Below are positions 458-54,050 of a stretch of 64,000 nt of DNA, one piece after another (the first letter of the stretch is position 1; each line of letters opens with the position of its first letter). The notes under the pieces were generated by a model. That model saw nothing but the letters and a program-made list of their open reading frames with translations. It made no database searches and was not told the origin of the DNA. A program made the translations under genes and the position numbers. The stretch comes from Candidatus Algichlamydia australiensis (lineage in GTDB: Bacteria > Chlamydiota > Chlamydiia > Chlamydiales > JAJFMI01): contig JAXCHI010000003.1 in the NCBI GenBank assembly GCA_033977065.1, positions 96,001 through 160,000 of the forward strand, in the 5' to 3' direction.

Positions 458-1615
458 ATGTATAAAACAATTCAAGGTCTATTTTTGGTAGGTGCTTCAC
501 TTTTGTTCTCAGAACAAATTCAAGAAACACCAACAGTCAGCGAAGTTGCTGATAAAAACGCTTATTGCGATTGGCAAGGAAAAGTTGGTAGCGCTTCTCC
601 CTGTTCTGGATTCTTTTTAGATTTATCTTATCTCTACCTTAGATCCGAACTCGATGGACTTTCCTACGGCCAAACTTTTGCCGTAACACCCGCAACGGCA
701 ACCACACCGGGAAGCATCATCTCAGAAACGAAGGAGCTAGATTTTGATTGGGACTCTGGTTTCAATTTAGGATTAGGCTATATTTTTCCAAATAGAGAGC
801 AGTGGCAACTCTCCGGCTACTGGACGTATTTACATTCAGATGCAGAAAACAGTGCTAGCTCAGACGATATCTCAGAAGAGTTCATCGCACCACAGTGGGC
901 GCATTTTTCAACTGGCTCAGCAGCAGATAGAGCCTCTGCAGACTGGACCTTAAATTTTAACGTCATGGACATTGCCATAAGCCGCAACGCCTTTTTTGGA
1001 AAATGGCTTTCTATAGAACCTCGAATGGGGATTCGCGCAGCTTGGATCAACCAAGATTACAATGCTAACTACCGCGGACTCTTCAGCTTTACAACAGGAG
1101 GAGTCGCTACAAACCTATTTAAGGATACAAGTTTCAAAGCTGATCAAGAATATTGGGGTGTAGGAACCCGAATGGGAACGGGGCTTCAATGGCATCTCAC
1201 AGATAGCTTTTCCATCTCAGGAGGAGTATTTGCTTCCCTGGTTTACGGTGGATTTACAATCAACGAAACCATCGTTGGTGGTGTCATAGAAGACGTTGGT
1301 GCTGGCCCAGCACTTCTAGAGGAAGTTCATAAAATTCGAAAAGAGTTTAATGCCTTAAGAGCGGCCCTCGAAACAGAAATTGGAATTCGCTGGCAGCACT
1401 TTTTTCAAGATCGTTCAAGCAGACTTCTCATCGGTCTTTACTACCAGTTTAACAACTGGTTTGATCAAAATGAGATTTTCAATCCCGTATTTTCAAACGA
1501 CTCTTCCGCGATAAACATCAATTCAAACCGCAATGATCTTGCCTTTAACAGTATTTATAGTAATGGAAACTTGCAGATGCAGGGCTTACGTGCTCAAGTC
1601 CGCTACGATTTCTAA
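458..1615 (+). CDS. MOMP-like (Lpg1974-type) outer-membrane beta-barrel protein
   Basis: Signal peptide; YLYL..DGL and GFNLGLG motifs; alternating beta-strands; C-terminal GNLQMQGLRAQVRYDF; paralog of the genes at 37-42 kb. Confidence 0.85.
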   Translation: MYKTIQGLFLVGASLLFSEQIQETPTVSEVADKNAYCDWQGKVGSASPCSGFFLDLSYLYLRSELDGLSYGQTFAVTPATATTPGSIISETKELDFDWDSGFNLGLGYIFPNREQWQLSGYWTYLHSDAENSASSDDISEEFIAPQWAHFSTGSAADRASADWTLNFNVMDIAISRNAFFGKWLSIEPRMGIRAAWINQDYNANYRGLFSFTTGGVATNLFKDTSFKADQEYWGVGTRMGTGLQWHLTDSFSISGGVFASLVYGGFTINETIVGGVIEDVGAGPALLEEVHKIRKEFNALRAALETEIGIRWQHFFQDRSSRLLIGLYYQFNNWFDQNEIFNPVFSNDSSAININSNRNDLAFNSIYSNGNLQMQGLRAQVRYDF

Positions 1616-16803: not shown

Positions 16804-16836
16804 ACCTTGAAATGTACGAGTAAGAATCTTTTTATG

Positions 16837-17412
16837 CTATTCGTTTTGCGATTTCCCTCGCAAAATACCTAAATACGACTCTGGGATTTCAATGGAATTC
16901 ATCTCATTTAACTGAGGAAGTCTTTCTTGGGGATGGAAACGAAGGTTGCTAATATTTAAAACCTTTCCTAAAGCAGACTCTGTCGAGCCGGTAAATTGTG
17001 TACTCAACTTGTCCTTCAGGAAACGATCTAAAGATCTCTCTACTAAACCAGCAACTTTAAAACTTTTTGGAAAAATTTGCTGTAATTTCTCTATAGGAAA
17101 ATCTGATTGCAATCTCTCTAAAGTATTCAAATAACTCTGTTGTTTCTTTAGATCCTGGAGCAATACTCCCAAATAATTTGCGTAGACAACCATAGCCAAA
17201 TCTTCACCAGAAAATGAAGCCAATCGCTTTTGGTTATCTTGAATTACTCTCCGAAAAAAATCTTCAGGAGCCGATTCTTCTTTATAAGAAAAATTAAGTG
17301 AAGAGAGCGCAACCTTATTTAGCTCGCGACTCTCTGCAACAGTTTGAAATACCGAGTAAAAACTTTCCTCATCGCCGTGAACCTTATTTGGTGTATTTAG
17401 AGCTATTCCCAT
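16837..17412 (-). CDS. Hypothetical protein
   Basis: 191-aa ORF; no recognised motif. Confidence 0.6.
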   Translation of the reverse strand: MGIALNTPNKVHGDEESFYSVFQTVAESRELNKVALSSLNFSYKEESAPEDFFRRVIQDNQKRLASFSGEDLAMVVYANYLGVLLQDLKKQQSYLNTLERLQSDFPIEKLQQIFPKSFKVAGLVERSLDRFLKDKLSTQFTGSTESALGKVLNISNLRFHPQERLPQLNEMNSIEIPESYLGILRGKSQNE

Positions 17413-17458
17413 CGCAACTTCCTTATTTAATTATCACCTGTTTTGAAAGAACGGAATT

Positions 17459-18350
17459 GTGTCTGCATCTAATTTTGCAAATAGCAACCCTGATCTAAGT
17501 GAGCAAAACCGACACTCTTTTGATAGTAGCCATAATAGCGTGGTCTCTCTTAACGCAATCTCTAAAGCTAAAGGGATAAAGGGTTCCCTTCTTAGCTCCG
17601 CCAAAGGTGGAATTAGCGTTGGAATTGAAGAGCCTGTTCATGGAGGCGGTCTACTACAATTTTTCTTAGAAAGAAACAGCGAAGAAATTGAGAGTGAGTT
17701 AGCAAGCCTCTATCTAAAGTATTTCTCTTTACTCACTCGAACAACTCTAGTAGCAACTGCAAGGAAAAATGTCCTTTTGCAAAACGAAGATTTTATTCAC
17801 AAAGTTTCCGAAAGAACACATTTTACAGCACTTTTTATTTTGCAAGATATCGAAGTCGAGGGAGATGAAAGAGATAGTATTAGATAGCGTCGTCAAAAGC
17901 ATACAACCATCTTATTTTTCATGTTTGGGCTCCATTTTTGTGCTCAAATGAAGCGGAATTTACAAATTCAGCTTCAATTTCCGCACAAAAATAAGCTGCA
18001 AACATGAAAAATAATCTGATTATAGCCTTTTGACGACACTATCTAGTGGATGTCGAGAAACATCAAGAAGCTTCATTCCCCCTGAAAAAATATATAGAAT
18101 ACTTGTAAGTCAAAGGTTTGAGCAATCCCTCCATCCCCTTCAAGAAAAAGTTGTTTTTGTTCCAAGCATTAAAGAAAAGGTCGAATTTTCTTACAAGGAC
18201 GAACATGGAAATCCCCAAACTTTTTCTATTCCAAATCTATCCATTCCAAACTATCAAAGTATATTAGAAGAACTCTTTCAAAATCGTGTTTGTCAAGACC
18301 AACCTATTTATACTCATATGACAAGACTTCCTCTCCCTGAAAGTGAATAA
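17459..18350 (+). pseudogene. Hypothetical gene split by miniature element A
   Basis: Removing 17883-18045 fuses ORFs 17459-17887 and 18030-18350 in frame (..ERDSI-SGCRET..). Confidence 0.7.
17883..18043. mobile_element. 161-bp MITE-like element A with TA duplication
   Basis: TIRs GATAGCGTCGTCAAAAG / CTTTTGACGACACTATC; TA on both sides; second copy at 53189-53348. Confidence 0.88.
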
Positions 18351-18398
18351 TTTACTTACTATCTTTTTTTACCCCGAAATGGTAAAATCAAATGCCTA

Positions 18399-19103: not shown

Positions 19104-19193
19104 TCATTCTTTCCCGCTTCCTTATCGGGTTTAATTCAAAAATACACCAAATATAATTCAATAAAATAAATAAACAAAAACAAAAAAACTACC

Positions 19194-19222
19194 TTGTTTA
19201 ATTTGAATAATAATTGTATAAT
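19194..19222 (+). promoter_or_regulatory. Putative promoter in an AT-rich tract
   Basis: TTGTTT-N17-TATAAT upstream of 19245. Confidence 0.45.
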
Positions 19223-19244
19223 TAAATAAAAAATATTTTTATTT

Positions 19245-20312
19245 ATGATTACAACAAGAAACCTAATTAGACACCTTCCCGCTACAACTGTATTTCAAAA
19301 AAGATGGAATAGTGGCGATAAAAAAATTAAAGGAGTTATGGAGGAGAGTGGCTTTTTATACCAAAGTCCCTCTGAAAAACTAAAAACATTAGCAATGCAT
19401 TCTCGTGAAACTTATCAAGATGCAGGAATTAATGCTAAAAGATTAGAAACTTGTGAATTATTATTTCAAAAGAGGTTAGCACAGAGCGCACCACATATGC
19501 CAATTAAACCTTCTTTGATTTCTGAAAATCCAACATCTGAATTTTGGCACCGACACCATAAAGTACATGCACCGTTTAAAGATAGGACAGTAGAGTGCTT
19601 TCACACCGACAAAGAGCACGCAGTCCAAAATTTATCTAACCTTTTTAAGGAAGGAAAACTATGCATAGAAACCCCAAATGCTTATATCATTACACACGGT
19701 TGTGATAATAACGATGCTGGGCTAAAGGTGCGACTAAACTTAGAAGAGCTTTCAGTTAAAACTCATGGGATTGCCCTTGATATTTCGCTACACGCTTTGT
19801 CAATGTCAAGAGGGTTAGATACCCTTGTAAATGATGTAATGCCTACTTTTTCAAAATCGGATATTGTATTCCATGATCTCTATTCGGAAAACTCTAATAT
19901 TCACTTTCCCTCAAATTTTCAAAAGCTTGCATTAGCCTTTAGACTAACAGCCATATCTCCTATTCAGACGATTGTCTCCCTCACCAAAAAAATTATTTCA
20001 AGTAGTGACTTCTCTATAATAGCTTTTTTATCAGATGATGCTCTTACTATCAGCTCAATAATTGAAAGAGGTTACAAAAAAAAACGGGGAAGTGCTAATC
20101 TATCTGAGAATTTGGTCCTCCCCTACTATCAAGCAAACCAAGGTAGTACTCTGGGAGTGTGGGACGCAGGAAATATTTATAAGCTAGTGGATTTATGTGA
20201 TGGCAAAATCATTACAATGGACTCAGTTCGAGCATCTGACGACCATAACAATCCGATCAACGTAGTGTACGTAATAGTAGAAAATATCAACACAGTAGAA
20301 AGAAAAAGATGA
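19245..20312 (+). CDS. Hypothetical protein with a mitochondrial-presequence-like N-terminus
   Basis: 355-aa AT-rich ORF; MITTRNLIRHLPATTVFQKRWNS. Confidence 0.75.
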   Translation: MITTRNLIRHLPATTVFQKRWNSGDKKIKGVMEESGFLYQSPSEKLKTLAMHSRETYQDAGINAKRLETCELLFQKRLAQSAPHMPIKPSLISENPTSEFWHRHHKVHAPFKDRTVECFHTDKEHAVQNLSNLFKEGKLCIETPNAYIITHGCDNNDAGLKVRLNLEELSVKTHGIALDISLHALSMSRGLDTLVNDVMPTFSKSDIVFHDLYSENSNIHFPSNFQKLALAFRLTAISPIQTIVSLTKKIISSSDFSIIAFLSDDALTISSIIERGYKKKRGSANLSENLVLPYYQANQGSTLGVWDAGNIYKLVDLCDGKIITMDSVRASDDHNNPINVVYVIVENINTVERKR

Positions 20313-20719
20313 TTCAGTACCCAATTAGATTCCTTAGATCATTTAGCAGAGCATACTCTTCTGTGCGGCAAGTGCCGTTAGAGGCTTTTACAAAAAACCG
20401 TTCCGATCTAAATAAGCAAGATAAGTTTTTTCCACCTACTGAGCAAAGGAGAGAAGAGAGCAAAACAACTGAAAAAGAGTGGAATAGATTTATAAAAAAA
20501 CAGCGCGCCAGTATTGATGAAGCCTTTTATTCTCTAAATCCTTCGTCAAAAGAAAAACCTCCAAAATTTTTTCTTAAATCTGCCCCACCAACCTCTGTAA
20601 CCCGGCAAGACACACTTTTTCCATCTGCTGAGCAGCTCGAAGCAGCGGCAAACGATCCAGAAGCCGGAAAAAGTATCCGGGAATGGAATGCGTTTCTCCG
20701 AAAATTAGGTTCTGAATAA
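20309..20719 (+). CDS. Hypothetical protein with a mitochondrial-presequence-like N-terminus and an internal repeat
   Basis: ATGA overlap with the upstream gene; MIQYPIRFLRSFSRAYSS; two FP..EQ...EWN.F..K units. Confidence 0.72.
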   Translation: MIQYPIRFLRSFSRAYSSVRQVPLEAFTKNRSDLNKQDKFFPPTEQRREESKTTEKEWNRFIKKQRASIDEAFYSLNPSSKEKPPKFFLKSAPPTSVTRQDTLFPSAEQLEAAANDPEAGKSIREWNAFLRKLGSE

Positions 20720-53173: not shown

Positions 53174-53188
53174 TTTTTTGTTAGTCTA

Positions 53189-54050
53189 GATAGTGTCGTC
53201 AAAAGGCTATAATCAGATTATTTTTCATGTTTGCAGCTTATTTTTGTGCAGAAATTGAAGCTGAATTTGTAAATTCCGCTTCATTTGAGCACAAAAATGG
53301 AGCCCAAACGTAAAAACAGGGTGATCAAAAGGATTTAACGACACTGTTTAGAACATGCAAAGTTTTCTGCAAAACAAAAAAAACAGCCGCGCAAGCGACG
53401 TGAAAGGGACCCTACCCAAAACGAAGTGGAGGGTGGGGAATGAACGCGCGATGCGCTCGATGGCTTCAGATTGGCTTTGAAAAATTGCGGTGCAGGAGGA
53501 AGAAGTAGTGCTTTGCACGGTTTTCCGACGAAACGCAATTTGGCATGCCAAGATGAAGCTCAAAGGGCAGCGGGGATTTGCCCGACTGTCTCTATTGGCT
53601 GTTTTTTTTAAATTAAACACTAATATTTTCTGTTACAGAGTACTAGTACTCTGTAACAGAAAATTTTGCTATTCTTTTTAACGTCAAAGCCTTCGCATAA
53701 AAATGGATCCCAAACGTGAAAAGTAAAGCGATTGTATGTGATTGAAAAAGCTGTCTAGACCTTGCAAAGTTTTCTGCAAAACAAAAAAAAACAGCCGCGC
53801 AAGCGACGTGAAAGGGGCCCCTCCCGAAACAAAGTGGAGGGTGGGGAATGAACGCGCGATGCGCTCGATGGCTTCAGATTGGCTTTGAAAAATTGCGGTG
53901 CAGGAGGAAGAAGTAGTGCTTTGCACGGTTTTCCGACGAAACGCAATTTGGCATGCCAAGATGAAGCTCAAAGGGCAGCGGGGATTTGCCCGACTGTCTC
54001 TATTGGCTGTTTTTTTAAATTAAACACTAAGATTTTCTGTTACAGAGTAC
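53189..54050. mobile_element. Composite stack of miniature elements (A 53189-53348, partial B 53351-53643, complete B 53646-54050)
   Basis: Modules separated by TA; B has perfect TIRs GTACTCTGTAACAGAAAA / TTTTCTGTTACAGAGTAC; empty site seen at 56351-56360. Confidence 0.88.

Follow-up and report, generated by a model that had tools for sequence, protein, structure and literature searches.

A two-gene insertion in an environmental chlamydia encodes a diverged methyltransferase-fold protein and a predicted small partner that may form a secreted module

What would a chlamydia do with two overlapping genes, set between housekeeping genes, whose products both start with an arginine-rich stretch free of acidic residues? 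The question is raised by a stretch of DNA from Candidatus Algichlamydia australiensis, the 64,000 nucleotides at positions 96001 to 160000 of contig JAXCHI010000003.1 (G000:C3:96001-160000, in a genome, G000, of 1.8 Mb and seven contigs), which we call the window. The first open reading frame (ORF), ORF1, lies at 19245..20312 on the forward strand, encodes 355 amino acids (aa) and starts with MITTRNLIRHLPATTVFQKRWNS; ORF2, at 20309..20719 (+), encodes 136 aa and starts with MIQYPIRFLRSFSRAYSSVRQ. The original prediction took them for coupled orphan genes beginning with mimics of mitochondrial presequences. We find that ORF1 can be modeled confidently as a highly diverged class I (Rossmann-type) S-adenosylmethionine (SAM)-methyltransferase-fold protein with a helical N-domain of its own and that ORF2 is predicted to bind it. 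The two may form a secreted module with generic or type III secretion leaders, a reading that we favor with about as much confidence as doubt.

With a 16-row alignment, AF2 modeled ORF1 (19245..20312, +) with a predicted local distance difference test score (pLDDT) of 86.7 and a predicted template-modeling score of 0.85, whereas without an alignment the model was useless (pLDDT 34). A disordered tip (residues 1 to 12) leads into a helical N-domain (about 13 to 120) and a class I SAM-methyltransferase fold (about 93 to 354); helices at 13 to 34, 42 to 59, 67 to 81 and 96 to 103 come before the alpha/beta domain. The methyltransferase-fold domain (19521..20306, +) was delimited from alignment A3, the AF2 model, Foldseek and VIA-align. 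The top Foldseek match was AzeJ (8ryf_B, E 1.2e-9), and VIA-align superposed ORF1 on AzeJ (8rye_A; Z 17.1, root-mean-square deviation [rmsd] 3.2, 215 residues aligned), on EgtD (4pio_B; Z 16.1, rmsd 3.1, 225 aligned) and on METTL6 (7ezg; Z 15.8, rmsd 3.8, 218 aligned). Other fold matches were CcbJ, NNMT, ChlM, TehB and a Trm112 complex (6f5z_B, Z 14.6), and the ESM Atlas returned class I methyltransferase clusters only, among them an EgtD-like cluster over residues 16 to 351 with a template-modeling score of 0.66. ORF1 thus shares with AzeJ, EgtD and METTL6 the same predicted alpha/beta Rossmann-type fold over residues 93 to 354 or so, but its identity to them is 8 to 15%, the glycine-rich motif I is replaced, and it has a helical N-domain of its own, a signal-like leader and what looks like an obligate small partner.

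Motif I of class I methyltransferases reads E/D-x-G-x-G-x-G and follows strand 1, and many methyltransferases deviate from it. In ORF1 the usual site is occupied by the loop G152-C153-D154-N155-N156. D179, which ends modeled strand 2 (172 to 179), is conserved among members of the close subfamily, and the whole family shares R233 and D333 without exception. Because ORF1 fails the curated sequence models and its motif I is atypical, we call it a methyltransferase-fold protein and not a proven enzyme; judging from the model, we infer that it may be catalytically active as a methyltransferase.

ORF1 is no orphan. When 1.84 billion representatives were searched with phmmer, 16 proteins, the query among them, scored at E ≤ 0.001, which leaves 15 distant relatives, none with an informative name; 10 of the matches are at E ≤ 1e-10 and 4 at E ≤ 1e-30, the best relative having an E value of 3.9e-43 and 31% identity. 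No methyltransferase-type Pfam family was matched by any of the 16 members. Of 400 other genomes from the same order, the family profile hit 4, which belong to four different families and one of which (G295) has three paralogues. A word-index search recovered the query alone (1 of 1897 candidates), a single-protein search of 40 relatives gave 0 of 40, and scans of genome contigs and metagenome contigs with family members (two each) returned nothing. From the alignment we dropped P0017, an 840-aa repeat protein that matched in eight stretches (E 1.6e-5) and was judged spurious, and the fragments P0011, P0012 and P0016; P0010, a truncated protein of 196 aa, was kept in alignment A1 and left out of A3.

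ORF2 (20309..20719, +) has an isoelectric point of 9.8 and matched no Pfam family at E ≤ 1 and no NCBIfam family, and its word-index search recovered the query alone (1 of 7 candidates). In the ESM Atlas its best row scored 0.84 and rows with eukaryotic or mitochondrial names 0.79 to 0.80, all below the level of shuffled proteins. The protein contains an internal duplication, in which residues 40 to 64 (FFPPTEQ...EKEWNRFIKK; 20426..20500, +) and 103 to 132 (LFPSAEQ...IREWNAFLRK; 20615..20704, +) share the motif F-P...E-W-N-x-F-[IL]-[KR]-K; the two halves match in BLASTP at E 7e-07, with 12 of 36 positions identical.

All three runs of the complex prediction for ORF1 and ORF2 gave a score of 0.90, against 0.00 for the highest of three controls. 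Of 157 solved complexes 116 attain this mark, as do 2 of 215 mismatched pairs, a comparison that is rough here since we supplied our own alignments. The runs had at least 73% of their contacts in common, with a partner pLDDT of at least 60. ORF2 would contact ORF1 through residues 57 to 133, a segment that takes in the second repeat and part of the first, and the ORF1 side of the predicted interface comprises the lid ahead of the core (72 to 132), positions after strands 3 to 5 (209, 233 to 237 and 262 to 277) and the C-terminal sheet (297 to 341). The contacts of lowest expected error involve ORF2 residues 123 to 131. The interface includes the invariant R233 and D333 and leaves both leaders free. 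If the predicted binding is real, ORF2 would wrap the lid and the face of ORF1 that in class I methyltransferases holds cofactor and substrate, and its role could be that of a subunit, of a regulator or inhibitor, or of the substrate.

The pairing recurs in a second genome, G339, of another family of the order. There (L013, G339:C91) an ORF1 homologue reduced to its last 81 residues, with a GTG start (1453-1698), runs into an intact ORF2 homologue through the same ATGA overlap (GTATGA). The retained 81 residues belong to the predicted ORF2-binding surface of ORF1, and the second ORF2 repeat is the sole one kept in the homologue. The recurrence of pair and overlap, together with the predicted binding, bears out the earlier view of a coupled two-gene module. 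Two database fragments, P0011 and P0016 (81 and 72 aa), match the same C-terminal part of ORF1 as the remnant in G339.

No further relatives of ORF2 emerged from weaker candidates. Searched with the ORF2 profile, 399 other genomes yielded six more hits at E 0.001 to 0.006, several of them with internal stops, which we treated as noise, and two marginal hits among 40 relatives were put down to chance, one being a flavoprotein reductase domain and the other carrying an internal stop. Small ORFs (84 to 140 aa) also adjoin distant ORF1 homologues in G295 (L015, L018, L019), G167 (L016) and G282 (L014). These neighbors are convergent or divergent, and they start with MIR or MLR and are Arg-rich and acid-free; as kin of ORF2 they were rejected (hhalign probability 0.15%, BLASTP E 12). 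Beside one of the G295 paralogues, the ORF at 776-1126 (+) of L015 (G295:C27) may encode a type I-E Cas2.

A small partner bound to a methyltransferase invites comparison with Trm112, which extends the methyltransferase sheet at one edge, whereas ORF2 is predicted over the lid and active-site face. The candidate was rejected, ORF2 having no Trm112 Pfam match at E ≤ 1 and no NCBIfam family. The arrangement is nevertheless similar in kind, as the Trm112 holoenzymes, in the parts of the reports available here, consist of a class I methyltransferase activated by a small bound protein (PMC5372719, PMC6144793).

The setting of the genes points to acquisition from elsewhere. The stop of rluB and the start of the DUF47 gene are 18 nt apart in G001, of the same genus, and 17 nt apart in G002, of the same family, but 1673 nt apart in G000, and the break in housekeeping sequence that the original prediction described is therefore genuine. 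Genus and family relatives have an rluB-DUF47 gap of about 18 nt, and this species gained the cassette as a lineage-specific insertion. In G001 and G002 gpmA abuts rluB on its other side, where G000 has a further 1595 nt in addition to the 1673 nt holding ORF1 and ORF2. The inserted blocks on both sides have a guanine-plus-cytosine (GC) content of 0.32 to 0.39 (the cassette itself 0.32 to 0.38) against about 0.44 to 0.48 in the flanks. Contigs from two runs of one study span rluB-ORF1-ORF2-DUF47 with 0 differences, although one of the runs may be the source of this DNA, and a run from another study held a single identical 210-nt piece, a small share from which we draw nothing. Among the sequencing runs listed for this DNA there was no RNA run. 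The ends of the insertion showed no flanking repeats, and neither tblastn against plasmids and phages nor PADLOC gave a match to the cassette. In G009, of another family, a 400-aa permease-like gene (L011; G009:C6 6501-7703, -) sits between rluB and DUF47, and because of this we consider the junction variable, with different cargo in different lineages.

The ATGA shared by the ORF1 stop and the ORF2 start (20309..20312, +), which had been noted before, is real and fits translational coupling. The promoter that had been placed ahead of the genes fared less evenly. The 141-nt spacer from the rluB stop to the ORF1 start (19104..19244, +) is indeed AT-rich (GC 0.32 to 0.33 in the windowed profile), and it contains a perfect TATAAT hexamer (19217-19222) that lies 17 nt behind a TTGTTT (19194-19199) and ends 22 nt before the ORF1 ATG. 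A consensus scan, however, called no promoter in this spacer, since the -35 element matches at only three of six positions, and the same scan found no terminator after rluB. No Shine-Dalgarno-like sequence precedes the ATG at 19245. The spacer elements would thus be a candidate promoter. The start of the spacer also forms a 21-nt inverted match (86%; 17378-17398 with 19140-19160) with the 5' end of a 191-aa ORF beyond rluB; 13 inverted pairs of 72 to 94% complementarity are listed in the 4.2 kb, and this one may be due to chance.

The ORF1 leader (residues 1 to 23, MITTRNLIRHLPATTVFQKRWNS; 19245..19313, +) has 3 Arg, 1 Lys and no Asp or Glu, and the ORF2 leader (residues 1 to 24, MIQYPIRFLRSFSRAYSSVRQVPL; 20309..20380, +) has 4 Arg, 0 Lys and 0 Asp/Glu and contains R14-A15-Y16-S17. 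Both leaders carry a net charge of +3, and in both proteins the first acidic residue is at position 25, so that the peptides and the lack of acid quoted by the original prediction are confirmed. An acid-free N-terminus alone nevertheless carries little weight in this proteome, as 306 of 1608 crude ORFs of the genome (19%) have no acidic residue before position 25. Stricter criteria (residues 1 to 22 free of D and E, three or more Arg among residues 1 to 25, Arg in excess of Lys, and no hydrophobic stretch) select 23 of 1519 crude ORFs (1.5%), a class in which many members are ribosomal or have over-extended starts and in which ORF1 and ORF2 are the sole credible adjacent pair. The class was set after both peptides had been seen, which makes it less than a clean test.

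The family offers better evidence that the leaders are a distinct element. Over the leaders of 11 ORF1-family members (21 to 38 residues each, 326 in total), Asp plus Glu make up 1.8% as opposed to 12.8% elsewhere in the same proteins, and Arg outnumbers Lys 30 to 16 (Arg 9.2%), while the rest of the proteins have 4.2% Arg and 9.3% Lys. Ser plus Thr account for 19%, Phe plus Tyr for 17% and Cys for 3.7%, with Ala plus Leu at 10% compared to 18 to 19%. A twin-arginine translocation (Tat) signal, suggested by A-R-R-S-F, F-R-R-C-F and I-R-R-T-F-L in homologues, was rejected: a search that detected TatC in 11 of 14 control genomes found none in this 93%-complete genome, and the leaders lack a hydrophobic region (maximum 15-residue hydropathy 0.17 and 0.04).

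Would the leaders be needed at all? Possibly neither protein is exported, ORF1 being a cytoplasmic methyltransferase for a small molecule, RNA or protein, which ORF2 serves as regulatory subunit, inhibitor or substrate, with leaders that are ordinary N-terminal extensions such as membrane-binding amphipathic helices or a part of the fold. We regard this as possible though doubtful. The best fold matches (AzeJ, EgtD, CcbJ, NNMT, ChlM, TehB, METTL6) are cytoplasmic small-molecule or tRNA methyltransferases, activation by a small partner has its precedent in Trm112 as far as the reports cited above go, the frequency of acid-free starts among crude ORFs fits ordinary extensions, and residues 13 to 34 of ORF1 are modeled as a helix joined to the domain. 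On the other hand, an acid depletion of seven-fold and a reversed Arg:Lys ratio, confined in 11 members to a leader of variable sequence, point to a signal rather than a folded element; the model shows residues 1 to 12 of ORF1 as disordered, and the predicted interface includes neither leader. The patchy and laterally moving distribution (4 of 400 genomes), among obligate intracellular bacteria, would also be typical of host-facing accessory genes.

If the leaders are signals, their most direct explanation would be type III secretion. Type III signals are disordered stretches of about 20 residues that are rich in Ser, Thr, Asn and Ile and poor in Leu and acidic residues, a profile that the composition of the leaders and the disordered tip of ORF1 fit. 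The genome encodes SctV/FHIPEP (725.8 bits), three secretin-domain genes and several nucleotide transporters, and we therefore take the organism to be a chlamydia that is obligately intracellular and has a type III system. The caveat of the original prediction, that type III signals too are acid-poor, was well placed, for such a signal explains the same features and the machinery is encoded. One nucleotide-transporter (TLC) gene, at G000:C2:62034-63490 (-), is broken, matching as two pieces and holding one TAA and two TGA codons, and three others are intact.

The secreted module that we favor would then be a laterally acquired, translationally coupled two-gene cassette, sporadic in environmental chlamydiae, in which each protein would carry a free, acid-free and arginine-rich leader of about 23 residues ahead of its interacting parts. 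As signals for export or targeting, the leaders would bring the two subunits to one common destination, and most simply ORF1 and ORF2 would be type III secretion substrates delivered into the host cell. That either protein is exported, and to which destination, is something that we infer from features of the sequence.

Several observations weigh against this reading. ORF1 has no Pfam match at E ≤ 1, no NCBIfam match and no PDB sequence hit below E 0.5; the family loop G-C-D-N-N-[ED]-A (E-G-C-D-[ND]-[GA] in the distant subfamily) replaces G-x-G-x-G, five distant homologues have Asn at the position of D179, and the nearest folds are small-molecule methyltransferases, usually cytoplasmic. ORF2 is basic, unlike classical secretion chaperones, its codon score is low (0.097), a value that the highest-scoring non-coding shadow frames also reach, and a single homologue is known, that in G339, the profile recovering only ORF2 and the G339 protein. 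The complex model is a prediction built on a two-row ORF2 alignment. The cassette also decays, as seen from the ORF1 remnant in G339 and from database fragments of 72 to 97 aa. Finally, Met32 (19338..19340, +) is a possible alternative in-frame start of ORF1, with AAGGAG upstream at a poor spacing of 2 nt, and if it is used instead of Met1 the leader is absent. Met32 stays in play because the pairwise phmmer alignments to relatives begin at residues 32 to 36 of ORF1 and a profile of the homologue leaders and their motif failed to pick the ORF1 N-terminus among 1519 N-termini. Against its use, every homologue has 35 to 47 residues before the point aligned to ORF1 32 to 36, and residues 21 to 34 of ORF1 form a helix in the AF2 model at a pLDDT of 81 to 93.

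Would the leaders lead further, into mitochondria? According to the original prediction both proteins would be effectors with cleavable matrix presequences, imported through TOM/TIM23, cut by MPP (and Icp55) between R-W and N-S and between R-A-(Y) and S-S, and reassembled in the organelle. We consider this unlikely, and a mitochondrial presequence, if possible, is a stronger case for ORF2 than for ORF1. The MPP/Icp55-type motif is R-x-[FYL]-[SA] or R-x-x. R-A-Y-S in ORF2 is of the specific form, and R-x-[FYL]-[SAT] occurs before the first acidic residue in 22 of 1608 crude ORFs; R-W-N-S in ORF1 is very loose and fits R-x-x only. The hydrophobic moment of the ORF2 leader, 0.92 in an 11-residue and 0.68 in an 18-residue window, is at the 100th and 99th percentiles of 1519 crude N-termini, and as predicted from sequence this leader is an extreme amphipathic basic helix with every textbook feature of a presequence (four Arg, no Lys, 24 acid-free residues, R-A-Y-S). 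The ORF1 leader is only average (76th to 78th percentile), and the values of nine homologues are spread between the 4th and 92nd percentiles.

The leaders of nine close ORF1 homologues, each 21 to 38 residues long, acid-poor and Arg-enriched, favor the mitochondrial explanation in that they end in [RK]-x-[FYL]-[STC] (RSYS, RSFC, RCFS, RFLS and RHFT, for example; nine of ten family leaders have this ending), usually followed by I-x-K-I-N, as does the finding that two unrelated proteins predicted to bind each other both have a leader outside the interface, as the import of two subunits would need. Unlike canonical presequences, however, the leaders contain little Ala and Leu and much Phe, Tyr and Cys, the family-motif profile misses the N-terminus of ORF1, and the R-W-N-S of ORF1 lies inside the modeled helix 13 to 34, which continues into the folded domain. 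The presequence reading of the original prediction gains from the family motif and the ORF2 helix and loses from the leader composition, the weak amphipathicity of ORF1 and the place of its motif within a modeled helix.

Known effectors provide precedents for parts of both explanations. The Ats-1 presequence of Anaplasma phagocytophilum is said to be cleaved on import. Ats-1 is a bacterial effector reported, in the part of the source at hand, to be imported into host mitochondria (PMC2824752), but it is a type IV substrate from a family unrelated to ORF1 and ORF2. Closer to home, the accessible part of the report by Dimond et al. (bioRxiv 10.1101/2022.08.30.505961) describes C. trachomatis type III substrates with functional mitochondrial targeting, CT529, CT618 and CT642, and it follows that a mechanism of mitochondrial import exists in the phylum; for CT529 and CT618 the presequences are working ones in known type III substrates. 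As far as that text goes, their N-termini are acid-poor and positively charged like those of ORF1 and ORF2 and also serve type III secretion, but these proteins are of the inclusion-membrane type and their leaders abound in Ala, Arg, Leu and Ser, whereas ORF1 and ORF2 are soluble, have leaders rich in Phe, Tyr and Ser and show no sequence relation to them. As a base rate, 5 of 22 tested C. trachomatis proteins with predicted presequences reached mitochondria upon ectopic expression (bioRxiv 10.1101/2022.08.30.505961). The leaders might also be dual-purpose, each serving at the outset for type III export and afterwards as a cleavable organelle presequence that ends in R-x-[FY]-S, in which case a two-subunit methyltransferase effector would reassemble in the host mitochondrion and methylate an organellar target; we hold this to be quite unlikely.

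For the delivery of a methyltransferase as such, NUE of C. trachomatis, a SET-domain histone methyltransferase effector, is a precedent by type III secretion in the available part of its report (PMC2904774). In that account NUE has a SET fold, a nuclear target and no partner subunit, whereas ORF1 has a Rossmann fold and a predicted partner. The kind of effector is thus known, and what is new here is the ORF1 family, its ORF2 partner and the idea of two leader-bearing subunits.

The second low-GC insertion, between gpmA and rluB (16804..18398), was delimited by the GC profile and by comparison with G001 and G002. It contains a 191-aa ORF (16837-17412, -), with no Pfam or NCBIfam match and missing from this junction in G001 and G002, and the halves of one split gene (17459-17887 and 18030-18350), also with no family match; a 265-aa protein of G339 matches the N- and C-terminal halves at E 6e-20 and 2e-20, respectively, and this intact homologue adjoins the ORF1/ORF2 pair in G339. 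The gene is split by a miniature inverted-repeat transposable element (MITE; 17881-18045), a hairpin of about 166 nt with 69-nt arms that are 78% complementary, and from the sequence its excision at the TA would restore the frame (…D-S-S-G-C-R-E-T-S…). A partial copy lies at 53186-53316, and the genome has at least 35 near-full-length copies at 95 to 100% identity plus at least 5 partial or diverged ones, a floor since 40 of 60 candidates were scored. In one run the read depth over the MITE was 977 versus 11, and contig breaks coincide with the element.

This neighborhood raises the question of whether the cassette is itself decaying or non-functional DNA, with frames that happen to be open in genes that are unexpressed or useless. 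We find this very improbable. The low GC content, the below-median codon scores, the splitting of the neighboring inserted gene by the MITE, the ORF1 remnant in G339 and the short fragments elsewhere would all agree with decay. However, neither frame is broken and the five alternative frames all have negative scores, the codon score of ORF1 (0.17) being inside the range of long genes; ORF1 keeps the family-invariant residues and gives a confident model; and the geometry of coupling is kept between two distant genomes.

Environmental chlamydiae have many uncharacterized lineage-specific genes, and two of them here resolve into a concrete and testable module, in which a very diverged methyltransferase fold that sequence libraries miss is joined by a new small partner predicted over its active face. 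Should the leaders not be signals, the pair would, going by the models, still represent a new methyltransferase-regulator or enzyme-substrate family. Should the dual-leader explanation be true, a chlamydia would inject two chains separately and the host would import and trim both. And if both leaders do serve for targeting, the chains of a multi-subunit enzyme would be delivered one at a time to a eukaryotic host and possibly into an organelle.

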